In this document: in pieces, positions 2,661 to 50,748 of the stretch
Numbering within the stretch: position 1 is the stretch's first letter
How the letters are laid out: every line of letters begins with the position of its first letter
Assembly: GCA_964392345.1 (NCBI GenBank)
Contig: CAYMPQ010000002.1
Location: 1 to 56,495 of the forward strand
Direction of reading: 5' to 3'
Source of the DNA: an uncultured Actinomycetota bacterium
GTDB taxonomy: Bacteria; Actinomycetota; Humimicrobiia; Humimicrobiales; Humimicrobiaceae
DNA: 56,495 nt
Notes under the pieces: model-generated
Seen by the model: the letters and a program-made list of their open reading frames with translations, nothing else
Told to the model about the DNA's origin: nothing
Databases searched by the model: none
Program-made: the position numbers and the translations under genes

Positions 2661-4079
2661 ATGAAATATAATCCAGTAACAAATAAAATCATAGCTAAGC
2701 TGGTTAAAATTGCTGGCAGTAAAAATGTCTTAACTGATAAGGAAAAAATAGAGGCTTACTCACATGATGAGATGCCAAAGGAACAATACGCACACATGCC
2801 AGAAGTTGTAGTAACACCTGAAACAGCAGAGGAAATAGCAGAGATTGTTAAACTGGCTAACAAGGAGCTGATACCAGTTACTCCGCGCGGCGCAGGCAGC
2901 GGACTATCAGGCGGCGCCATACCTGTTTTTGGCGGTATTGTAGTTTCTGTTGAAAAGATGAATAAGGTTTTGGAAATAGATTATGAAAATATGGTAATGG
3001 TTCTGGAACCGGGTGTGGTTACAAATGATGTGAACGAACTTATTGCAGAGAGAAATTTGTTTTATGCAGGCTATCCTATGAGTCTGGAAACCTGTTTTAT
3101 AGGCGGCAATGTAGCTGAAAATGCAGGAGGCGGCAAAGCTATCAAATACGGTGTTACGGGCCGGTATATTTTAGGATTGGAAATAGTTACTCCGGCAGGT
3201 GAGATAATTCAGTTTGGCGGTAAACTTGTCAAGGATGTTGTTGGATATAATATAAAGCAGTTGATAATAGGATCAGAGGGAACTTTAGGGATTGTGACCA
3301 AAGTAATTGTTAAACTATCACCGCTGCCAAAATATAAAGTGGATTTGCTCGTTTTATTTAAAGATGTCAAATCTGCTATTTCTATGGTTTCGCGGATACT
3401 TACAAAAACAGGAATAACTCCTACTTCTATTGAATTTATGGATAAGCTGTCTGTCCAAACATCATGCAAGTATTTAAACGAGCATCTCCCATACCAAAAA
3501 GCAGGCGCTATGCTGCTGATAGAAGTTGATGGCAACCGCGAAGACCATGTTAGCGATGATGCTGAAACTATTGGAGAACTATGTCTTGAAAATGGAGCAA
3601 TAGAAGTCTATGTGGCAGATAATTACACTACCCAGGAAAGAATTTGGAGTGTGAGACGTAATATTGCTGAAGCCTTTAAAGTAGTGAGTCCCCATCAGAG
3701 TTTGGAGGATATTGTAGTGCCGATAGCATATATTCCTGATTTAATGCCTGAGATTGCTCTAATTTCTAAAAAATATGATATTCAGATTCCATGTTATGGC
3801 CACGCCGGTGATGGAAATCTGCATGCAACTCTTGTAAAAAATCCTAAGAGCACCATGGAAGATTGGTATGAGATTGAGGTAAAAAGTTTAAAAGAATTAT
3901 ATGAAGCAGCGATAAAGCTCGACGGCACTATAAGCGGCGAGCATGGCATTGGCTCCAAGCGAAAAGATTTTATGGAAATTGCGGTAAGCAAAAATGAACT
4001 GGATTTAATGCGTAGAATTAAAAAAGCTTTTGATCCTAATGGCATCATGAACCCAGGAAAGATATTTGATATGGAATAG
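2661..4079 (+). CDS. FAD-linked oxidase (GlcD / D-lactate dehydrogenase family)
   Basis: Contains a PCMH-type FAD-binding region (PVTPRGAGSGLSGGAIP) and an FAD-oxidase C-terminal domain (GEHGIGSKRKDFM). I prefer the ATG at 2661 (MKYNPVT), 2 nt after the etfA stop, over the track start at 2628. Confidence 0.85.
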   Translation: MKYNPVTNKIIAKLVKIAGSKNVLTDKEKIEAYSHDEMPKEQYAHMPEVVVTPETAEEIAEIVKLANKELIPVTPRGAGSGLSGGAIPVFGGIVVSVEKMNKVLEIDYENMVMVLEPGVVTNDVNELIAERNLFYAGYPMSLETCFIGGNVAENAGGGKAIKYGVTGRYILGLEIVTPAGEIIQFGGKLVKDVVGYNIKQLIIGSEGTLGIVTKVIVKLSPLPKYKVDLLVLFKDVKSAISMVSRILTKTGITPTSIEFMDKLSVQTSCKYLNEHLPYQKAGAMLLIEVDGNREDHVSDDAETIGELCLENGAIEVYVADNYTTQERIWSVRRNIAEAFKVVSPHQSLEDIVVPIAYIPDLMPEIALISKKYDIQIPCYGHAGDGNLHATLVKNPKSTMEDWYEIEVKSLKELYEAAIKLDGTISGEHGIGSKRKDFMEIAVSKNELDLMRRIKKAFDPNGIMNPGKIFDME

Positions 4080-4107: not shown

Positions 4108-4578
4108 TTATTTTACCGAGAATTCTTTAATTTCTTCCAGCTTATCATTTAGATAAACTTCGGCGCTGTATCTTCCCGGCGGGAAACCTTCAGCTATTTT
4201 AATATTAAACGCGAAATAGCCTGAACCGGGGTTTTCTGTTGTAAGTTCCTGAATATCTATCTCCTTGCTGATTTCAAGGTAGTTCCACACAACACGCAGT
4301 TTGTCTTCTGGCGTAAAGTCTGTAATTTTAACAGATAGATAAATAGCTGCGGTATCAGGCGGAAAGACATTTGTGACATTAGAAGGTGCAGAGTTTTCGT
4401 CAACTTTTTTACAGATAGCAACCTCTTTAATTGAAGCTGGTTCACTGCTTATAACGTCATGTACTTTTTCCTTAATTTGAGTTGTTCTGCCGGCGCATCC
4501 TGTAAGCATCAGAGAAATAAATAATGCAGTGAGAGTAAAAAACAATACTCTGTTAAAAACAAATGTTCTATTTTTCAT
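4108..4578 (-). CDS. Lipoprotein of unknown function
   Basis: The N-terminal signal peptide ends in the lipobox LTGC (MKNRTFVFNRVLFFTLTALFISLMLTGCAG). No other motif was recognised. Confidence 0.6.
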   Translation of the reverse strand: MKNRTFVFNRVLFFTLTALFISLMLTGCAGRTTQIKEKVHDVISSEPASIKEVAICKKVDENSAPSNVTNVFPPDTAAIYLSVKITDFTPEDKLRVVWNYLEISKEIDIQELTTENPGSGYFAFNIKIAEGFPPGRYSAEVYLNDKLEEIKEFSVK

Positions 4579-10586: not shown

Positions 10587-10922
10587 ATGAAAAGAGCAGC
10601 AATGGAAAGGCGCGAAAAGGATCTTCTGTCAAAAATTACAAGGATCCTAAACTACTCAGAATATATACATGCTAATCTGTTTACCATGGAAAGGGTGTGT
10701 GGAAACAAAAACTGCAGGTGCATAAGAGAAGGTAAAAAACATAAGTCTCTTTATCTTGCCACTATGACAAAAGAGAAAAAAAGAAAGACGATATACATCC
10801 CCAGAAGACTTGAGGATAAGGCAAGGCAATATACAGAGCGGTATTTTAAAATAAAAGAAGGTCTGGAGAAGATATCAGATATTAACCTGGCCAGACTGCT
10901 TGAGGAGAAAGATAAAAAATAA
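10587..10922 (+). CDS. IS-encoded small Cys-rich basic protein (accessory or DNA-binding)
   Basis: 111 aa with CGNKNCRCIREGKKHKSLYL. Its stop overlaps the transposase ATG (TAATG), and it lies inside the inverted repeats. Confidence 0.6.
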   Translation: MKRAAMERREKDLLSKITRILNYSEYIHANLFTMERVCGNKNCRCIREGKKHKSLYLATMTKEKKRKTIYIPRRLEDKARQYTERYFKIKEGLEKISDINLARLLEEKDKK

Positions 10923-12123
10923 TGTTTAAAAAGGCCCTGAGATATTCCAGGAAACATTTCGACCTTTTTAAGAAACTAAAAGATATAACAGATAAAAGAA
11001 TAAAGGCAAGAATCTCCACAGCAGAAGTAGCTATAGCAATATTTTCACTCCAGCTTGCCAATCTCGGCTCCCTTAATAACTATGCTCAGTCATCAGTATT
11101 ATCGCCTTCAGTATCTACCATAGCAAGATCAGCTGACGGTATGGATATTGACTACCTGCGGAATGTAAACTTACAAATATATAAAAAGGCAAGAAAGAAA
11201 AAGATGCTATCAGCTTACCGGGGAGAATGGATAGGGATAATAGATGGAAAAGAAATCACTACTTCAGACTACTTAAAGTGTAGCCATTGCAAAAAGCGAA
11301 AGCTAAGAGACAAGGAGGGAAGATTAAAATATCAGTATTATCATCAGTTTAATGCATTTATACTGGCATGTAAGGATTTTTCCATTACTTTAGATATTGA
11401 ACCCATACTTCCCGGTGAAGGGGAGCAGACAAGTGCCTACAGGCTGCTGGAAAGAGTCTGTAAAAATTATCCAAAAGCATTCAGCCTGGTAATAGGGGAC
11501 GGACTCTATCTGAATGAAAAAATATTTAAGCTGCTTGAGGCCCATCATAAAAAAACCATTGCAGTGCTAAAGGAAGAAAGAAGGCAGCTGTTTCAGGAAG
11601 CAAACAGGCTATCTCTTCTGGAAGAGCCGGTAGTATACAGGGAAGGTAAAACCAGCTACAGGGTATGGGGCCACTCAGTATCTGGATGCTGGGATGGGTA
11701 TGGAAAAGATGTAAGGGTTATAGTATCACAGGAGATAACAAAAAAAGGACTCACTCAAAAGATGGTAAAAGCTGGGAAGACAAGGAGGTGGTGGCAAACT
11801 GGATGTGGGCCACCAATTTAGATGTTTCCAAAGATACAGGTGATCTTAAAAATATGGTTAAGGTATGCCACTCCAGATGGCATATTGAGAACCGCTGCTT
11901 TAAAGAGACGGCCGATATGTGGAACGTGGAGCATATCTACCGCCACAGCAAAAATGCCATCATGGTATTTCTGCTGTTTCTTTTTATGGCGGTAAATATC
12001 TTTAATGTCTTTAGAAGCAGAAATCTCAAAGACAGTAAGATAAGGACCAAGCTAAACCTGATAATGAGATTACGTGGAGATTTCTTAAGTCTGGCCAATC
12101 CGCTTCCGCCTGTTCCTATATAG
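10922..12123 (+). CDS. DDE transposase split into two overlapping frames (10922-11821 and 11665-12123), joined by a -1 shift at an A7 run
   Basis: The upstream frame has D-containing blocks (IGIIDGKE, LVIGDGLYLN). The downstream frame has HSRWHIENRCFKE, the catalytic E block. The frames meet at ACAAAAAAAGG (A7 at 11740-11746), and a -1 slip gives ...SQEITKKRTHSKDGKSWEDKEVVANWMWATNLD... Confidence 0.75.
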
Positions 12124-30802: not shown

Positions 30803-31786
30803 TTGTCTATTATCAAACAAAAATTCACCCTTGATTTTGTGGGGAATCATTCAATTGCAGAGTTACTTGGAGATAGAGATAAGCTGGTTAAACTGGTAGA
30901 GAAAGAATATAATGTAGAAGTTTTTGTATTAGGCAATGATATCGAAGTAACAGGTAAAAGTAAAAATGTTAATAAAGTAAAAAAATTACTTAATGAGCTA
31001 ACCCTGCAGATTAATCTTGGACAACAAATAAATGCTCAGAAAATTGATGATTCAATAAGGATTATGGAAAGTAAATCAATATTAACTCCACATGAAATAT
31101 TTAATAATCTTATTACAGTAAGCAGTGGTAAGAAAATTAAACCGCGCACTGAAGGTCAGCAGAAATATGTTGAGGCTATTAAAGAAAATACCATTGTATT
31201 TAGTATAGGCCCTGCCGGCACAGGGAAGACTTATTTAGCTTTGGCTATGGCTGTAAATGCACTTGAAAAAAATGAAATTGGGAGAATAGTTTTAGTGAAG
31301 CCGGTAGTTGAAGCTGGCGAAAAGCTGGGATACTTGCCGGGTGATATTTATGATAAAGTAAACCCTTACCTAAGGCCGCTTTATGATGCTTTATATGAAA
31401 TGATAGATGTTGAAATATTTCAGCAGTACATGGATATGAGTATTATAGAAGTAGTTCCGCTGGCTTATATGAGGGGGCGTACCCTAAATAATTCTTTTAT
31501 TATTCTTGATGAGGCACAAAATACATCTCCTGAACAGATGAAGATGTTCCTTACACGATTAGGATTTGGTTCCAAAGTTGTGGTAACAGGAGATATCACT
31601 CAGGTAGATTTACCAGTAGAAAAGAAATCAGGGCTTATTTTAGTAAGAAAAATACTGGAGAATATTCCCGGAATAGAATTTGTGTATCTTACTTCTAAAG
31701 ATATTGTAAGGCACGCATTAGTCCAGAAGATAGTGGATGCTTACAAAGCATATGAGGAAGATTTAAAGAATGATAGCAAGAAATAG
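30803..31786 (+). CDS. phoH: PhoH-like ATPase
   Basis: GPAGTGKTYLA, ILDEAQN, VTGDITQVDLP. Confidence 0.9.
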   Translation: MSIIKQKFTLDFVGNHSIAELLGDRDKLVKLVEKEYNVEVFVLGNDIEVTGKSKNVNKVKKLLNELTLQINLGQQINAQKIDDSIRIMESKSILTPHEIFNNLITVSSGKKIKPRTEGQQKYVEAIKENTIVFSIGPAGTGKTYLALAMAVNALEKNEIGRIVLVKPVVEAGEKLGYLPGDIYDKVNPYLRPLYDALYEMIDVEIFQQYMDMSIIEVVPLAYMRGRTLNNSFIILDEAQNTSPEQMKMFLTRLGFGSKVVVTGDITQVDLPVEKKSGLILVRKILENIPGIEFVYLTSKDIVRHALVQKIVDAYKAYEEDLKNDSKK

Positions 31787-33962
31787 AAAAATAATAAATA
31801 AGACCAAAGAAATTATAAAGCACAAAAATGGCAACAACAATAATAAAAAGGCCATAGGGTTTTTCCGTAAATATTTTTCTTTTAAAAGCAAGCATGCTCA
31901 GAGGCTATATTTATTTGTTTTGACTGCAGCCCTTGTAATTACTATTCTTTCCTATAATTATGCCCCTAATATTGTAGTAGAGATTGGCAAGCCAAGTCCT
32001 CGTACAATCAAAGCAAGCAGAAATGTAGATTTTGAGGATATGGAAAAAACAGAAGAAGATAGAAGTAAAAATGTGGCCGAAGTAGAAGATGTATATAAAT
32101 ATGATGTAAATATATTAAGCGGTGAAGAAGGAGCTCTTTACCAAATTAGATATTTTTATACATTGGCCAGGATTGTTCAGAAAAAAGTTGATATGTCTTT
32201 TGAGGAAAAGGTTGAGTATCTGTCTAACATGCTTGGGAATGTATATCCAGAGCCAATTATTTCATCTGTTCTTGAGCTATCTATAGAGGAAAATAATTTT
32301 CTCGCAGAGAAAACCCAGGAAATTGCAAAGCAGGTAATGAGAGATGAAATTAGGCCCACAGAATTAGATTTTGTAAAAAATAAAACCATAGAATTTATTA
32401 AAAATGATAAAGATATAAAGGAAGAATACGTACCCATAATAAGTGCTGTTCTTCAAAAAAATATCCAGCCTACTGCTGTATTTGATTCCGTAGCTACAGA
32501 AAATGCTAAAGAAGAAGCAAAGCAAAACACTCCTCCTCATATTGTCAGCATTACAAAGGGACAAATTATTGTTTCCGAAGGTGAAATTGTCAGCCAAAAT
32601 GATATACAAATATTGGCAAAATTAGGTTTATTGCAAAGACAATACAACTGGTACAGATTTTTTTATATATTTTTTATAGTTTTTATAGTTTTATTTTTGT
32701 TTGGATTTTATATATACAGATTTAACACAAAAATCTTTAATGATTTAAAGAAATTATTCTTAAATTCTTTAATTATAGTTGTGTTTGCTGCAATAATAAG
32801 ATTGCTTACATTTCTTTCTTCTGTTCACCTGGAGCTGTGGAATTATCTATTTCCAGTAATTGCAGCGTCAATGCTCTGTACTATTATCTTTGATTCCCGC
32901 ATAGGTATAATGATGACTATTTGTCTCAGTATTTTTTCTGGAATAGCCACTGATTTTGATTTCAGCATCATGCTTGTTTATATACTTGGTGGAATTTTTG
33001 CTACATACCTGGTATCAAATGTTTCACAGCGGTCAGAAGTGATGAAAGCTGGTTTTATAAGTGCACTTATCCTTGGATTTTTATTCTTGATTGTAAATCT
33101 TATTGGCGGGGAAGTGCAAACCATAGCTCTGTATACAATGTTAGGCGTGCTAAATGGTATTGTATGTACAGTTATGACAATAGGGCTGCTTCCGTTTATT
33201 GAATCTACATTCAGAATAGTAACTGCTATGAGATTGCTTGAACTTTCCCACACCGATCAACCACTCTTAGAGAAACTTTTGATTTCTGCTCCTGGCACAT
33301 ACAATCATAGCCTGCTTGTAGGACATTTAGCTGAAAGTAGTGCAAAGGCTATAGAAGCTGATCCACTTCTTGTAAAAGTAGCTGCCCTGTATCATGACCT
33401 TGGAAAAATGAAAAGGCCTGAATATTTTTATGAAAATCAAATTGGCATTGAAAATATCCATGACCGCTTGAATCCATCAATGAGCAGAAATGTAATAGCA
33501 AATCACATAAAGGATGGCATAGAGATAGCAATTAAAAATAAAATTCCTGAGGAAGTAATAGAGATTATTTCTCAGCATCATGGGAATTCGCTGATAACTT
33601 ATTTTTATAAAAAGCAAAAGGATATGGAATTCGCTAAAGCATCAAATGGTGCTGCTGAAGGATTAAAGGGACATTTTAGATATCCAACTAAAAAACCTCA
33701 GAGCAAAGAAGCAGCTATCCTGATGCTGGCTGATTCAGTTGAAGCTGCTGTCAGGTCAATTGATGATGTGACTCCTAAGAAAATAGAGCAAATGGTAAAT
33801 GATATAGTAGAAGAGAGGCTAAAAGATGGCCAGCTGGATGATGCTGATATAAAAATAAAAGAAATAAACACAGTTAAAAGTACCTTAATTGAAGGCCTTA
33901 TTTCTATATATCACTCCAGAATTTCCTATCCTGAATCAGACTTAAAAGTTGTTCCTGAGTAG
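31770..33962 (+). CDS. pgpH: 7TM-HD membrane phosphohydrolase (PgpH/YqfF family)
   Basis: A large N-terminal extracellular region, about seven TM helices, and an HD domain (HSLLVGHLAE...LYHDLGK...QHHG). It lies between phoH and ybeY. Confidence 0.85.
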   Translation: MIARNRKIINKTKEIIKHKNGNNNNKKAIGFFRKYFSFKSKHAQRLYLFVLTAALVITILSYNYAPNIVVEIGKPSPRTIKASRNVDFEDMEKTEEDRSKNVAEVEDVYKYDVNILSGEEGALYQIRYFYTLARIVQKKVDMSFEEKVEYLSNMLGNVYPEPIISSVLELSIEENNFLAEKTQEIAKQVMRDEIRPTELDFVKNKTIEFIKNDKDIKEEYVPIISAVLQKNIQPTAVFDSVATENAKEEAKQNTPPHIVSITKGQIIVSEGEIVSQNDIQILAKLGLLQRQYNWYRFFYIFFIVFIVLFLFGFYIYRFNTKIFNDLKKLFLNSLIIVVFAAIIRLLTFLSSVHLELWNYLFPVIAASMLCTIIFDSRIGIMMTICLSIFSGIATDFDFSIMLVYILGGIFATYLVSNVSQRSEVMKAGFISALILGFLFLIVNLIGGEVQTIALYTMLGVLNGIVCTVMTIGLLPFIESTFRIVTAMRLLELSHTDQPLLEKLLISAPGTYNHSLLVGHLAESSAKAIEADPLLVKVAALYHDLGKMKRPEYFYENQIGIENIHDRLNPSMSRNVIANHIKDGIEIAIKNKIPEEVIEIISQHHGNSLITYFYKKQKDMEFAKASNGAAEGLKGHFRYPTKKPQSKEAAILMLADSVEAAVRSIDDVTPKKIEQMVNDIVEERLKDGQLDDADIKIKEINTVKSTLIEGLISIYHSRISYPESDLKVVPE

Positions 33963-45949: not shown

Positions 45950-46024
<75 letters not shown>

Positions 46025-46079
46025 ATATTAATACTTGTTTTAATACTTATAACTATATAATTACTTATATTTTATTTAT

Positions 46080-46100
46080 GGTTCGAATCCTCTCTCCCCA
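46080..46100 (+). repeat. Orphan tRNA 3'-end fragment (T-loop plus acceptor-like sequence)
   Basis: GGTTCGAATCCTCTCTCCCCA contains the canonical GGTTCGAATCC T-loop followed by a C-rich acceptor-like tail. The upstream sequence is pure AT-rich DNA that cannot form the rest of a tRNA. Confidence 0.6.
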
Positions 46101-46268
46101 ATATTTAACGTTATTTTATATTGATTAAAAAAATTTTACATAAATATCAATAGTATTATAATTAAAAGATAAATATAGAGAAATATTGTTATAAATTTTA
46201 TTTATCAGATATTAATCGGTAGATAAGTTTGATTATATAAATAAAACTAATATAAACCACAATTTTAA

Positions 46269-47237
46269 ATGACTACTAATAAAATAGAAAAATGGATTGG
46301 TTTTTACACAACTAATTCATTTTTAATTAATAAAGAACCAAAAATAATAAAACCAAGTTCTCCTCTATCTTGGGATATTAGTAGAATTTTTAAATTATTA
46401 TCTAATGCTGAGATTGAATATGATTGCAAATTTTACAATTTAAGAATTTTTAATGGTGGGATATTTGCTTTAAAATTAGAAGAAATATCTTTTGAAAAAC
46501 CTGACAATGATTTGATTATAAGAAAAATATTAAAAGGTATCACCTATTTAAATGCAATTCAATTATTATTTGAATCTTCTTTTCAAAAGCATAAAAAACT
46601 TGGTGGTTATTTTACTACTTATGAAATAAATTCTCAAAACACTTTAAAACTTGATTATGAAGGAAATAAATTAAAAGGTATATCAGGTCCTTTAAGAGAG
46701 GAATTTTATACTAATATGAGAATTGAAAATAGTATTAATACCAATAAAATAATTTTTGATGATTTAAATAATGATTTAGAGAATATTTCTAAAGATTATA
46801 GGAATGTCGAAATTCTAGCTGAAATTAGTAAGTCACTATCAGAATATAAAATTATGAACTTTTCATATTCTACACTTTTATCATGGATTATTATTGAAAA
46901 ATTTTTAAATATATTGTGGTCTGATTTATTGAAAAGTAAGCAAAACACGGCAATAATTAATAGAACAATTAGAGAGGATTTAGAAGACAATAGTGATTTT
47001 ACAGCATATATAAAATCAAATGTTTTAAAATTGTTTAACATTTATGACACGGAAATCTTTAATAAAATCAACAGAGTAAGAAAAGAAAGAAATGATATTA
47101 TGCATCCAAAATCAAAAAATAATAATGATAATAACTTTAAAATTTGCCAAGATGCTTTTGATATTATTACTATCTTTTTAGGAAAAAATATGAGTCTAGA
47201 TTTAAAATTTGATCTTAGTTTTGGCTATCAAATATAG
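46269..47237 (+). CDS. Hypothetical protein with a C-terminal HEPN-like region (RNxxxH motif)
   Basis: 322 aa. The helical C-terminal half carries INRVRKERNDIMHP (R-N-D-I-M-H, that is Rx4H) about 45 aa from the C-terminus, where HEPN active sites usually sit. The N-terminal half was not recognised. No SD sequence is present and the coding DNA is extremely AT-rich. Confidence 0.4.
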   Translation: MTTNKIEKWIGFYTTNSFLINKEPKIIKPSSPLSWDISRIFKLLSNAEIEYDCKFYNLRIFNGGIFALKLEEISFEKPDNDLIIRKILKGITYLNAIQLLFESSFQKHKKLGGYFTTYEINSQNTLKLDYEGNKLKGISGPLREEFYTNMRIENSINTNKIIFDDLNNDLENISKDYRNVEILAEISKSLSEYKIMNFSYSTLLSWIIIEKFLNILWSDLLKSKQNTAIINRTIREDLEDNSDFTAYIKSNVLKLFNIYDTEIFNKINRVRKERNDIMHPKSKNNNDNNFKICQDAFDIITIFLGKNMSLDLKFDLSFGYQI

Positions 47238-47407
47238 GTAAACTATTTTATCATTTAAAATCTATTTATTATACCTAGCTACTAATAATTATCCTTAGTA
47301 TTTTAATTATGTCACTAATTTCTTTATCTAATTTTGAAAATAAAGAAATAGGGTATCTAACTAGGAGCTAACATTGTCTGAAATGATAGTTCTTTAATAG
47401 TTTTTTT

Positions 47408-47446
47408 GAAATAAGAAATTCGAAATATGTCAACTAAGAGGAGGCA
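47408..47446 (+). repeat. Island repeat Ra (pairs with Rf)
   Basis: GAAATAAGAAATTCGAAATATGTCAACTAAGAGGAGGCA matches 33 of 39 positions in 54985-55023, in the same orientation. Confidence 0.8.
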
Positions 47447-47573
47447 ATTTAAGCACTTATTAAATTTAATGCTGATAAAAAATAGTAAGTGCAATTTTAT
47501 TTAAGTTACTATGATAACTTAACTTACAATAGCAAAGTCTTCTTTTATTAATTTAATTTGGGGAATTAATTCG

Positions 47574-47620
47574 ATAATATTTTGATAATAAATAGTTCTA
47601 AATGTGTTCAATATCCCTAG
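47574..47620 (+). repeat. Island repeat Rb (pairs with Re)
   Basis: ATAATATTTTGATAATAAATAGTTCTAAATGTGTTCAATATCCCTAG aligns with 54855-54901, sharing the core TAGTTCT(T)AAAT(G)TGTTCAATATC. Confidence 0.7.
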
Positions 47621-47686
47621 GTATGATGATAGAATAAGGTAAGCACTTCAGGCTTTAATTACCATTGAAGGTTTGATTATTTGTTA

Positions 47687-47695
47687 TGGTATAAT
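47687..47695 (+). promoter_or_regulatory. Extended -10 promoter element upstream of the TIR-like gene
   Basis: TGGTATAAT lies 33 nt upstream of the ATG at 47728. Confidence 0.35.
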
Positions 47696-47727
47696 ATAAA
47701 AAATCAAATATTTTTAAGTATTATTAT

Positions 47728-48855
47728 ATGGAACAAAATATTGAAAAAAAATTAAAGAAATATTCAGAATTAATTAAGTTAGGAGAACAAACTCTCAAAA
47801 AACATGGTTGGAACGAGGATGATGATAACATGTATAGGAGAGGAGGCCCTTCAAATGAAGATTATTCAGGATATCTTAATTCATGTATTTCATTAATTGA
47901 AGATACTTTAGGAAATGACAGCTCTTCTTATTTAATGATTAAAAAGTTAATAGACAACGAAAAGACATCAAGAAATCCATATTACTTTGCAGATTGTTTT
48001 GGAATTATAAAAACTGCCCTTGGGCTTTATAAGGAAAAAATTATGTCAGAAAATAAACTAGATATTCTATTAGATAAAATAGAAGAATTATACAATATAT
48101 CGAGTTGCTCTAATGATACTACAAAAATCGATACTGATTTTAAGTTATGGCATAGAGATCTCAAAAATATATTTGAAACTTATGAATTTGTTAACGATAC
48201 CTATGCAAAGTTATTTAATATTTTAGAATTTAAAGTAGTAGATGGAAATAAAAGATATGAGGGGCTTACTGAAAAAGAAAGTTTTGGCCAAGATATTGGT
48301 CTTTGTAGGGATATTTTAAAAATGATGGAACGAGATATAAATACTTATGGTGAGCGAGCTGTAAAAATAAAAGAACAAAAAAAAATAAAAAAAATAGGTA
48401 CAATTTCTGATAATAAGCAAGTTTTTATAGTTCATGGCCATAATATAGAAAAGAAAGAAACAACTGCAAGGATAATAGAAAAATTAGGTCTAGAACCAAT
48501 TATACTTCATGAGCAAGCTAATATGGGAAGGACAATTTTTAAAAAGTTATCCGAATATTCTGATGTTGTTGGTTTTGCGATTATATTATTAACTTCAGAT
48601 GACATTGGAAAAGAGAAAGATGAGTCAGATTTAAAACCAAGGGCAAGACAGAATGTTATTTTTGAATTAGGATATTTTTTAGCTAAATTAGGCGATAAAA
48701 ATGTTTGTGCACTTTACGAAAATGGAGTTGAAATACCAACAGATTATATAGGTGTAACATTTATCCAATTTGATTCTGCAGGAAAATGGAAATTTGAATT
48801 GGTAAGAGAATTAAAAGCTGCAGGATTTAATGTTAATGCTAATAATATTTTATAA
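47728..48855 (+). CDS. Two-domain protein: an unknown helical N-terminal domain (about 225 aa) plus a C-terminal Cap12/PycTIR-type TIR-like domain
   Basis: The C-terminus reads QVFIVHGHNIEKKETTARIIEKLGLEPIILHEQANMGRTIFKKLSEYSDVVGFAIILLTSDDIG...LKPRARQNVIFELGYFLAKLGDKNVCALYENGVEIPTDYIGV. This matches, block for block, the 'nucleotide-binding protein containing TIR-like domain' family (Pfam PF10137), including the FELG glutamate. Confidence 0.8.
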   Translation: MEQNIEKKLKKYSELIKLGEQTLKKHGWNEDDDNMYRRGGPSNEDYSGYLNSCISLIEDTLGNDSSSYLMIKKLIDNEKTSRNPYYFADCFGIIKTALGLYKEKIMSENKLDILLDKIEELYNISSCSNDTTKIDTDFKLWHRDLKNIFETYEFVNDTYAKLFNILEFKVVDGNKRYEGLTEKESFGQDIGLCRDILKMMERDINTYGERAVKIKEQKKIKKIGTISDNKQVFIVHGHNIEKKETTARIIEKLGLEPIILHEQANMGRTIFKKLSEYSDVVGFAIILLTSDDIGKEKDESDLKPRARQNVIFELGYFLAKLGDKNVCALYENGVEIPTDYIGVTFIQFDSAGKWKFELVRELKAAGFNVNANNIL

Positions 48856-48872
48856 TTTTATACTCTTCTAAA

Positions 48873-48936
48873 AAAATCTTTTTCAAATTGATAATATCTC
48901 TTAAAAATTGGTTCGAAATTTCAATATTTGGGGCAG
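48873..48936 (+). repeat. Island repeat Rc (pairs with Rd)
   Basis: AAATCTTTTTCAAATTGATAATATCTCTTAAAAATTGGTTCGAAATTTCAATATTTGGGGCAGC. The 19-nt core AAATTGGTTCGAAATTTCA (48904-48922) is identical to 50271-50289. Confidence 0.85.
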
Positions 48937-48988
48937 CTATTAATGAAACAAGGTTAAGGTTGACATCCTAGTATAATTAAGTTGGTTG

Positions 48989-50068
48989 CTAATTAAGAAT
49001 TATCTTCTTTAATGTACACATAAAATATTTTTCCTCACTAAATAAAATTGCCAGAATTTGATTTGAAGTTAATTGTGATGATACTGATTTAAACAAAATA
49101 GTAATTGAAATATTGGATAATTTATCATTTATAGTTAAATGATTATACATATTAATTTTCTGCCAGTCATATAAAGAATCCAAAACATCAACATCAGAAA
49201 GGTTTTTATGCAACCAAAAATCTAGATAGAGATCTTGATTTTTACTAATTACATCTAAATTAATTATTATAAATGTAATTGCAGGAATACTACCTTTAAT
49301 AATTTTTGGAGGATTTTTATCTAATTCAATGAAATTAAAATTTTGATTTAATGGTGGAGGACCAATATCTTTTAAATTGTCAAAATTAAAATGAGTAACC
49401 AATGATAAAAATGGGAATATCTTATTATTCTCAATATCCTTGATATCATTTGTTTTAAGGTTTGAAATAAAATAATAACCTAATTTATCTTTTGAATGAA
49501 CTTCCCCATTTTTTGGATGATAACTTATATGAGGTGAATAAAACTTACCTTTTACCGAATCAAGTTTTATATTACTTATACCCTTAATAATTTCATTTGA
49601 TGTATAGTACTCGCTTGCTAAATATTCACCTTCAAAATTGATATATATTGAATCGTCATTTCCTCTTTGAATTGTTAATAATTTATGATATTTATTTTTT
49701 TTCTTTAAGACCATTGTTACTGGTGGGAATTTCTGATGTCCAATAAGAAAATATTTTGGTTCTTCAACATTAAACCTTATTAAAAATTCTCTATAATAAG
49801 ACAATGCACCAGAACTATCAAAATAATAAGTATCAAATTTATCTAATTCCAACATTGATTCTTTAGGGTTTTTAAAATTAAAGCTCTTAAAAGTAAGCTT
49901 ATTATTGGGAAAAGCTTGTTTAAAAATCTTTTCTTTTTTATAACTATAATTTCTAAACCATAAAATATTAATAAGGCTCTTATTATTAAATATTTCTAAT
50001 AATTGGTCTTTAATTTCTTTAACCAAAGGGATTTTAGCAACGATGTATAATTTTAACTGTGATTTCAT
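48989..50068 (-). CDS. Hypothetical protein, 359 aa, no recognisable motif
   Basis: A long ORF in DNA where stop codons are otherwise very frequent. No SD sequence is present. It is the only gene between repeats Rc and Rd. Confidence 0.5.
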   Translation of the reverse strand: MKSQLKLYIVAKIPLVKEIKDQLLEIFNNKSLINILWFRNYSYKKEKIFKQAFPNNKLTFKSFNFKNPKESMLELDKFDTYYFDSSGALSYYREFLIRFNVEEPKYFLIGHQKFPPVTMVLKKKNKYHKLLTIQRGNDDSIYINFEGEYLASEYYTSNEIIKGISNIKLDSVKGKFYSPHISYHPKNGEVHSKDKLGYYFISNLKTNDIKDIENNKIFPFLSLVTHFNFDNLKDIGPPPLNQNFNFIELDKNPPKIIKGSIPAITFIIINLDVISKNQDLYLDFWLHKNLSDVDVLDSLYDWQKINMYNHLTINDKLSNISITILFKSVSSQLTSNQILAILFSEEKYFMCTLKKIILN

Positions 50069-50241
50069 ATTTTTAATTTAAATTTGTAGTTTAATCTGTA
50101 GTATATTTTAGAGCATTTTACAATTATTTGGCACAAACATTATATTTGTGGACCATATAGCAAATCATTAGTAATATTCTATTTATAATCTACTCACTAT
50201 TTCAAGTCAAAATAAATTCTTTATAATATTAGATAAAGAAT

Positions 50242-50304
50242 AAATCTTTCAAACCAATTAATTCCTTTATAAATTGGTTCGAAATTTCACATCTTGGGGG
50301 AACC
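50242..50304 (+). repeat. Island repeat Rd (pairs with Rc)
   Basis: AAATCTTTCAAACCAATTAATTCCTTTATAAATTGGTTCGAAATTTCACATCTTGGGGGAACCA, ending in a tRNA-like GGGGGA-A-CCA. Confidence 0.85.
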
Positions 50305-50748
50305 AATATGTATAGTTTTTCTCTCTAAAAAGGGTTTGATAAGTACTTTCTTTAATGTAAATGATTAAACCTTTATTAGAAAAACTTACCTGTAGTATTC
50401 GTAAACTGTTTGATATATTAATATTATTCATTTTACTTCGAATAATTAACTGAACTTTTTATATTATTAATTAATATACCTTTGCAGCCAAAAACACTGA
50501 GGAGGTTCAATCAATAAATTCAGGAACTGGGAAAGGATGATATTGTAGAGATATACAAATTAGCCAAATAATGATATTAGTTATAAGATAACAAAGTATT
50601 AGTATTAATACAGGAAATAATTATAAACATTTAATATTCATATTTATTATTGTATAGAGCAGGATCTCCTCTCTATGCAATAATAATTTATGCAATACAA
50701 ATTACCTTTTTTATAAAAATATAAGTATTAAATATTTGGAGGTAAATA

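Follow-up and report, generated by a model that had tools for sequence, protein, structure and literature searches.

Relatives of the TIR domain considered here are found in Cap12 (TIR-STING) and PycTIR; to our knowledge every characterised TIR of the Pfam family PF10137 (CAP12-PCTIR_TIR), namely those two, is activated by a nucleotide ligand, and in Cap12 the catalytic role falls to the glutamate of an 'FEFG' motif. An orphan TIR-SAVED effector can use a housekeeping signal of its host, cyclic di-AMP (c-di-AMP), without a cyclase of its own (10.1101/2025.06.19.660554). SpbK, encoded by ICEBs1 of Bacillus subtilis, is a single-protein NADase in which a four-helix N-domain is followed by a flexible linker and a TIR; binding of the SPbeta portal protein YonE to the N-domain leads to filament formation and NADase activity, and the TIR filament has been likened by its authors to the STING-TIR assembly (PMC12847820). 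Defence systems that consist of one TIR protein have been validated in Escherichia coli (PMC11350192). Here we describe a gene for a three-module TIR protein of 375 amino acids, located at 47728..48855 (+ strand; stop codon at 48853-48855) in a 56,495 nucleotide stretch of contig CAYMPQ010000002.1 (the window) from an uncultured Actinomycetota bacterium; its limits follow from the list of open reading frames (ORFs) and from full-length relatives. The core of this gene is a member of an already catalogued candidate family, PDC-S35, and the gene is unusual only in an extra N-terminal module (the N-module); what is new here is that module and the findings that it is rare, is shuffled among TIR and HEPN effectors and is likely to be a paralogue of the PDC-S35 N-domain.

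The C-terminal domain is an intact PF10137 TIR with the flavodoxin-like alpha/beta fold of TIR domains. An earlier reading of the DNA letters (the sequence-only reading) had proposed this family from the motifs VFIVHGH, LGLEPIILHEQ, GFAIILLTSDD, PRARQNVIFELGYF and VCALY, all of which are present in the translation of the ORF it had selected, and the Pfam scan it called for placed residues 231-349 in PF10137 with an E-value far beyond chance (1.7e-36), covering profile positions 1-118 of 119 at 125.3 bits by comparison with a gathering cutoff of 24.7. Together with a C-terminal helix the domain extends over residues 231-375 (48418..48852, + strand). The ORF is intact and keeps every family-invariant residue. 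E313 (codon 48664-48666, + strand), which the translation and the Cap12 alignment indicate as the putative catalytic glutamate of an 'FELG' motif, is aligned with the glutamate of 'FEFG' in the solved Cap12 chains 9lmq and 7un8 and is invariant across a 32-sequence family alignment; the further invariant positions of that alignment are F233, R248, G267, K273, N309, V310, G315 and P337.

Sequence matches of the TIR in the PDB were to Cap12 (9lmq, E=2.3e-11; 7un8, E=9e-9) and PycTIR (8jsj, E=3e-3), and the solved Cap12 and PycTIR proteins align with our protein over the TIR alone. The top Foldseek neighbours of the domain were the TIR-STING filament structures 9lmq and 7un8 (E of about 6e-6), with a root-mean-square deviation of 2.6-3.3 A for 7un8; other TIR domains came next, and nucleoside 2'-deoxyribosyltransferase and DNPH1 folds followed as weaker neighbours (E of about 0.02-0.04). 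We therefore identify the domain as a TIR because PF10137 is matched over the full profile, E313 is invariant and the structural neighbours are TIR-STING proteins, and we infer that it has NAD+ (nicotinamide adenine dinucleotide) glycohydrolase activity. A full-length AlphaFold2 model (predicted local distance difference test, pLDDT, 80.5) is almost wholly helical over residues 1-214, has a low-confidence linker at 217-225 and is alpha/beta over 231-364. Block pLDDT is mostly 83-95 over residues 231-375, with 65-72 around residues 261-280 and 291-300. The linker, residues 217-230 (48376..48417, + strand), is lysine-rich, with pLDDT below 50 at 217-225 both in this model and in one of the N-terminal 228 residues modelled separately.

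Cap12 provides the closest solved TIR by both sequence and structure, with the same 'FE[FL]G' glutamate, but the STING domain is absent from our protein, the order of domains is reversed (the TIR is C-terminal here and N-terminal in Cap12) and no CD-NTase was found among the window ORFs checked or beside the relatives. The protein was not accepted as a Cap12, as the NCBIfam Cap12 equivalogs, for which the cutoff is 450 bits, scored 47.7 and 41.9. PycTIR (8jsj) shares the arrangement of a C-terminal PF10137 TIR behind an N-terminal regulatory region, and 8jsj aligns weakly with residues 192-351 (sequence match E=3e-3 to 6e-5); our protein differs in having no cNMP_binding Pfam match and no Guanylate_cyc-type neighbour in the checked ORFs or the loci of relatives. 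The PADLOC PycTIR model matched mainly over the TIR with E=6e-9, by comparison with 1.9e-73 for PDC-S35, and identity with PycTIR was rejected. A ThsB of the Thoeris system was likewise rejected; PF10137 is matched and PF08937 is not, there is no Thoeris model in the PADLOC output, and the neighbours contain no effector domain recognisable by Pfam, PADLOC or NCBIfam that would represent an adjacent ThsA-type effector.

Residues 109-374 match the PADLOC PDC-S35 model PDLC05005 (E=1.9e-73; model positions 5-262 of 264) and four other PDC-S35 models (8.7e-70 to 2.4e-41). In PADLOC, PDC-S35 is a candidate single-gene system described as a 'nucleotide-binding protein containing TIR-like domain' of about 260-290 amino acids. 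By these alignments residues 106-375 amount to a complete PDC-S35-type protein, made of a helical N-domain and the TIR. The middle helical domain, residues 106-216 (48043..48375, + strand), is the N-domain typical of PDC-S35-type proteins, and family alignments show an invariant W141 within an F-x-x-W motif. Nearly all of the 5,433 relatives scored are 260-290 amino acids in length and span just the C-terminal 40-75% of our protein, which is longer, at 375 amino acids, because of an extra N-module of 105 residues. The full architecture was common to only three proteins (P0002-P0004; 73-75% identity) in a search of 5.8e9 clusters; one full-length relative is named as from a Candidatus Humimicrobiaceae metagenome-assembled genome, which NCBI taxonomy assigns to the Actinomycetota. 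Our protein thus resembles PDC-S35 in its helical N-domain with F-x-x-W, PF10137 TIR, invariant residues and stand-alone gene with no conserved partner, and differs from typical members in the additional module. A profile search with the middle domain returned 6 proteins, three with PF10137 and three short ones with no Pfam assignment; because it gave these 6 only, there is no sign of the middle domain pairing with other effectors, one protein described below (P0121) aside.

The N-terminal half was described in the sequence-only reading as a single unrecognised domain of 225 residues, helical and unlike known sensors. Its division needs amending, as there are two modules, of which residues from about 106 to 225 are catalogued in PDC-S35; residues 1-105 are indeed uncatalogued. 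The helical prediction stood: the separate model of the N-terminal 228 residues is all-helical (pLDDT 76.6), the N-terminal half has no Pfam match, and outside the TIR there was no sequence match in the PDB. Foldseek comparison of the N-terminal half with the PDB gave only generic helical bundles (best E 0.24) and comparison with viral predicted structures (BFVD) a best E of 0.19, neither of which is significant.

The N-module, residues 1-105 (47728..48042, + strand), has helices predicted at residues 2-25, 43-61, 66-79 and from 86 onward. It is rare: an exhaustive phmmer search of 1.84e9 representatives returned just 20 proteins at E<=1e-3, and the module has no relative in Pfam, PHROG or PDB. 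A 4-sequence alignment of the module detected no locus in 185,579 species genomes and 5 loci only in metagenomes. Its members fall into several architectures. P0122, P0123, P0125, P0130 and P0132 are free-standing modules of about 100 amino acids. In P0124 (254 amino acids) a PF10137 TIR (Pfam E=1.8e-40) follows the module directly, while P0126 (HEPN_Swt1, E=3e-6) and P0135 (HEPN, E=0.01) are fusions with HEPN domains, whose R-N-x-x-D-H-G motif is also found in two further fusions (P0136 and one at locus L022). P0133 carries the module ahead of a C-terminus of no recognised kind. P0121 combines the module with a middle domain like that of our protein (E=2.7e-10 with a hidden Markov model, HMM, built without P0121) and a different C-terminus; a PF10137 TIR was considered for the latter and rejected (E=0.36 against an HMM built without P0121). 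The HEPN-fused modules, and one free-standing copy that adjoins a DUF4145 gene, are 29-42% identical to the N-module described here; they share with our protein a module of about 100 amino acids, but the effector is a putative HEPN RNase and not a TIR.

Three metagenomic proteins of 378-395 amino acids (P0006, P0007 and P0071) have residues 1-113/133 in common with our protein at 69-89% identity, and in these the module is joined straight to another PF10137 TIR that is 29% identical to ours. The module is conserved where the TIR has diverged, which indicates a recent exchange of modules. Their tails of about 110 residues have a sub-threshold similarity to DnaJ-like_C11_C (E=6.6e-5; 23.2 bits, with the cutoff at 27.1). 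The junction in these proteins keeps the 'MSENKLD' peptide found in our protein around Met106, which indicates recombination with an ancestor like the present gene.

Alignments of the N-module and of the PDC-S35 N-domain were compared with hhalign, giving a probability of 84%, E=7.3e-6 and a score of 34.8 over 56 columns; 100 column-shuffled profiles scored 9.4 on average (standard deviation 1.6, maximum 14.1) and a reversed profile 14.3. The N-module is probably a diverged paralogue of the PDC-S35 N-domain, and the layout of P0124, in which the module and a TIR follow one another as in ordinary PDC-S35 proteins, is consistent with paralogy. The join between the modules lies at Met106. Met1 of a PDC-S35-type protein of 264 amino acids (P0015) aligns to Met106, and free-standing N-modules end at '...YK(E/G)K..' where our protein reads 'YKEKI-MSENKLD', so that Met106 comes immediately after. 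The junction at 48031..48045 (+ strand) retains a Shine-Dalgarno (SD)-like AAGGA at 48031-48035, a 7 nucleotide spacer and the Met106 codon at 48043-48045, unlike Met1, which has no SD-like motif; because such a motif precedes only about half of the genes in the window, the AAGGA weighs little as evidence of an internal start. These features suggest that a small upstream N-module gene was fused to a PDC-S35 gene with the join at Met106.

Free-standing modules are found beside genes of effector type. P0122 (locus L009/L010, 1-10306) lies in a dense defence-type island with a DUF4145 gene directly downstream, DUF4145 being a family of the HEPN superfamily; the island also contains an AAA_5 protein with a 515 amino acid partner (McrBC-like), an HSDR_N_2 protein, a Hypoth_Ymh protein, an NYN-domain protein and a serine recombinase. 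At another locus (L020) a coding region at about 3200-3948 that is TIR-like (E=1.9e-8 with the family HMM) is directly upstream of a free-standing N-module gene; about 100 in-frame codons precede its first canonical start, which may reflect an unusual start or partial degradation. At a third (L013, 240-1407) P0123 is followed by a protein of 65 amino acids with weak ribbon-helix-helix/DUF6290 similarity and then by one of 218 amino acids in which a caspase/CHAT-like His...Cys pattern ('LHISSHGD', 'CLSSCKS') can be seen by eye, with no Pfam support.

We looked for a signal-producing enzyme among 46 ORFs of the window, examined by Pfam scan or through the Pfam annotations of identical genes on other contigs. 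SMODS/CD-NTase, Guanylate_cyc (class III cyclase), DisA_N (diadenylate cyclase), GGDEF and Cas10 were all absent from these 46, in agreement with the sequence-only reading, which had found no cyclase in the window; a small number of short ORFs, and likewise the terminal two-component genes, lay outside the scan. Five of the 46 have no Pfam match and these include both neighbours of the TIR gene. Nor does a cyclase adjoin the TIR gene in any of three contexts, those of the window and of the relatives P0002 and P0003 (full-length, 73-75% identical). The P0003 gene adjoins an N6/N4 methyltransferase gene, a 296 amino acid unknown, a BrnT/CopG-antitoxin-like pair and transposases, and the P0002 locus has several small genes of no recognised family nearby; the genes for proteins of 322 and 359 amino acids that flank the TIR gene in the window are absent from both, and no neighbour is common to the three. 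The suggestion that the protein might respond to a neighbouring gene product is consequently disfavoured, and with no shared neighbour the protein would act alone or with unlinked factors. The case that the sequence-only reading had set against itself, a known cyclic-nucleotide sensor with a cognate cyclase, is not what we see, given an all-helical N-terminus and no adjacent cyclase. TIR-only PF10137 matches were present on 1,162 plasmid records and 5 phage records.

We think it probable, if only just, that the gene encodes a self-contained, single-protein NAD+-depleting defence enzyme of the abortive-infection type, with a helical sensing part and a TIR effector. In such a scheme the PF10137 TIR would be an NAD+ glycohydrolase of which a lone protomer would have no activity, and the two helical domains ahead of it would form the sensing and regulatory part, the extra N-module being a diverged paralogue gained by fusion of a small upstream gene. 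During infection the helical domains would bind a phage-made, probably multimeric, protein; this would cluster the protomers or relieve autoinhibition, and the TIR domains would then assemble head-to-tail in filaments such as those of TIR-STING and SpbK, with composite active sites around E313. The ensuing depletion of NAD+ would stop growth of the infected cell before phage release, and neither a cyclic-nucleotide signal nor a partner gene would be required. The helical modules show a sensor-like evolutionary pattern, in that the N-module is shuffled between effectors, also occurs free-standing and is related to the PDC-S35 N-domain. The setting of the TIR gene is that of a defence island, with a low-GC insertion, strain-variable cargo and, beside P0003, the methyltransferase and BrnT/CopG-like pair. 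SpbK offers the nearest parallel for direct protein sensing and for activation driven by oligomerisation, both of which we regard as plausible by analogy, as we do NADase activity and a defence function: it too has a helical bundle, a flexible linker and then, C-terminally, a TIR, and is encoded by one gene that lacks a partner and lies on a mobile or variable element, although it has one helical N-domain by comparison with the two in tandem here.

Several points weigh against this reading. SpbK was not among the PDB sequence matches or the top Foldseek matches (the presence of SpbK chains in the searched PDB copies being unconfirmed), and because no similarity to the SpbK N-domain was found, an SpbK-like mechanism is an analogy only. 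The full-length AlphaFold2 model has a predicted template modelling score of 0.44 and does not fix the packing of the domains. A novel signal-producing enzyme is formally possible, since the five family-less ORFs include both neighbours, and the missing cyclase in cis leaves ligand independence unproven because, as noted above, an orphan TIR-SAVED uses a host signal. No paper mentioning PDC-S35 was found in the literature searched and the family is a computational candidate; a systematic survey of TIRs left stand-alone TIRs aside and assayed none.

The dependence of Cap12 and PycTIR on ligands makes it worth considering that the protein is an orphan nucleotide-activated effector, in which binding of a small-molecule second messenger, whose source is encoded elsewhere in the genome, to the helical region would be followed by depletion of NAD+ by the TIR. 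We consider this unlikely, and equally so that the signal would come from a housekeeping cyclase or from an enzyme of the Thoeris, Pycsar or cyclic oligonucleotide-based antiphage signalling system (CBASS) type. The window is only 56 kb of the genome, and TIR-SAVED responds to host c-di-AMP in the absence of its cyclase (10.1101/2025.06.19.660554); the N-terminal 214 residues, however, are all-helical and match no known sensor fold or family in Pfam, Foldseek, PADLOC or NCBIfam, none of the three independent contexts has an adjacent cyclase, and a module that occurs with HEPN RNase-type effectors and free-standing is more easily seen as a protein-interaction module than as a ligand pocket. That same distribution, of one small helical module on two types of PF10137 TIR, on HEPN and alone, is shown by adaptor domains in comparative-genomics studies, and the N-module might be a homotypic adaptor that docks the TIR effector onto a separate sensor bearing the same module and encoded elsewhere in the genome. 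This we consider improbable, as we do its likening to domains of the effector-associated or Death-like kind in NTPase-based conflict systems: among about 20 members there is no long NTPase- or sensor-type protein (the longest convincing member has 395 amino acids), no second copy of the N-module was apparent in the window ORFs by eye or in family scans, and the module matches nothing in Pfam, including whatever effector-associated-domain family may be present there.

The junction at Met106 bears on a further explanation, that of a fused toxin-antitoxin-like module in which the N-module, possibly with the middle domain, inhibits the TIR toxin and was once a separate small upstream gene. Activation might then follow from degradation or displacement of the inhibitor or from a translation shut-off, and a shorter isoform starting at Met106 might exist; we doubt both the arrangement and these routes to activation, to about the same degree as the orphan effector. 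It would account for free-standing N-module genes of about 100 codons that adjoin effector-type genes (DUF4145 and the TIR-like ORF), for an AAGGA and 7 nucleotide spacer at Met106 where Met1 has none, and for a complete PDC-S35-type protein in residues 106-375 alone. Against this, PDC-S35-type proteins with no N-module are abundant and evidently tolerated, so that the module is not required for silencing the TIR; the homology of the N-module with the N-domain of the family speaks more for a duplicated sensor than for an unrelated inhibitor; and the occurrence of SD-like motifs at only about half of the window genes limits the weight of the AAGGA. Finally, the gene could have no role in defence, as a housekeeping or selfish-element enzyme processing NAD+ or nucleotides, or as a decaying passenger of a mobile island. 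The family is a computational candidate, the weaker structural neighbours of the TIR include nucleoside 2'-deoxyribosyltransferase and DNPH1 folds, and no mobility or defence genes could be recognised in the island. We nevertheless rate this as the least probable of the explanations considered, because the ORF is intact with its family-invariant residues kept, relatives of 73-75% identity are full-length in other genomes, the family is a PADLOC defence candidate with PF10137 relatives common on plasmids and present in a few phages, and relatives adjoin a methyltransferase gene and a toxin-antitoxin-like gene pair.

Returning to the self-contained defence enzyme, a bolder extension would be that the N-module and the PDC-S35 N-domain belong to one undescribed superfamily of portable phage-sensing helical domains, in which case the present protein would have two diverged copies side by side and would integrate two specificities on its NADase as a single-gene 'dual-sensor'. 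We put this forward tentatively, as a possibility that may well prove wrong, and with the same reserve the proposal that such helical domains are plugged in cis or in trans onto suicide effectors (two types of PF10137 TIR and HEPN). Stand-alone PF10137 TIR proteins are very common, with more than 5,000 relatives scored and TIR-only matches in 1,162 plasmid records, and there is no published mechanism by which the TIR NADase of this stand-alone family is triggered without a nucleotide signal. The gene is a compact test case, as a recently shuffled module marks the likely specificity-determining part within 375 amino acids. If the N-module is a sensor of phage proteins, it would amount to a new portable sensor domain that TIR and HEPN effectors have in common, and would help in the search for triggers; if it is not a sensor, the gene simply adds one member to an already catalogued candidate family.

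The TIR gene and two orphan genes make up a low-GC island at 46026..50700, whose right end could be placed only approximately, from GC alone; its GC content is 0.22-0.27 by comparison with about 0.35 elsewhere in the window. The left boundary is formed by the 3' end of a tRNA-Asn(GTT) gene at 45950..46024 (+ strand; ARAGORN and Rfam). Two contigs from other samples that encode an identical rpoD protein (L025 and L029) are 100% identical to the window up to position 46025, one base past the tRNA-Asn, and beyond it carry two different, unrelated sequences that are nowhere in the window. There are thus at least three alternative cargos at the tRNA-Asn site, and from the divergence at this point we conclude that it is a strain-variable hotspot. 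Pfam and PADLOC recognised no mobility genes or further defence genes in the island, and a search for flanking att-type direct repeats gave AT-rich chance matches only. At the start of the island, 56 nucleotides downstream of the intact tRNA-Asn, a 21 nucleotide sequence (GGTTCGAATCCTCTCTCCCCA, 46080-46100) resembles the T-arm and the acceptor 3' end found in a tRNA that is not tRNA-Asn. ARAGORN called no tRNA there and the window has no second copy; the sequence may have been left behind by a previous integration event.

The upstream island gene (46269..47237, + strand) encodes the protein of 322 amino acids and the downstream, convergent gene (48989..50068, - strand) that of 359 amino acids. 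Both are of no recognisable family (Pfam, PADLOC, NCBIfam, PHROGs and PDB sequences gave no match) and could be novel defence or mobile-element genes. Near the C-terminus of the 322 amino acid protein is 'RKERNDIMHP', which by eye resembles the R-x4-H of HEPN; a HEPN assignment on the basis of 'RNDIMH' was rejected for want of support in the same five resources. Rfam detected only the tRNA in the island, and the 490 nucleotide intergenic region upstream of the TIR gene is unremarkable in folding (z=-2.0). A promoter scan told us little in DNA so rich in AT (42 sites by comparison with 42.6 expected), and no terminators were found; about 30 nucleotides upstream of the TIR-gene ATG, TGGTATAAT can be picked out by eye, to which we attach little weight.

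The remaining ORFs among the 46 examined, those with no Pfam match aside, are housekeeping-like and include those for electron transfer flavoprotein (ETF), TsaBDE, GroES/EL, GuaB-like/GuaA, UvrD, an energy-coupling factor (ECF) transporter, HrcA/DnaJ, MiaB-like, PhoH/7TM-HD/YbeY, RecO, GlyQS, PpdK, DnaG and RpoD, among others. The gene at 31770-33962 (+ strand), between phoH and ybeY, encodes a seven-transmembrane (7TM) receptor with an intracellular HD hydrolase (PF07698/PF07697/PF01966), an architecture that includes the PgpH-type c-di-AMP phosphodiesterases; it is the one gene of the window that might be linked to cyclic nucleotides, and it is itself housekeeping-like. An ORF of 156 codons at 4108-4578 (- strand) has no Pfam match at the thresholds applied, and the same is true of two ORFs, of 299 and 152 codons, that lie on the same strand but in different frames at 10922-12123 (- strand). 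The first of these (10922-11821) overlaps the second (11665-12123), which may be due to a frameshift or a miscalled start.

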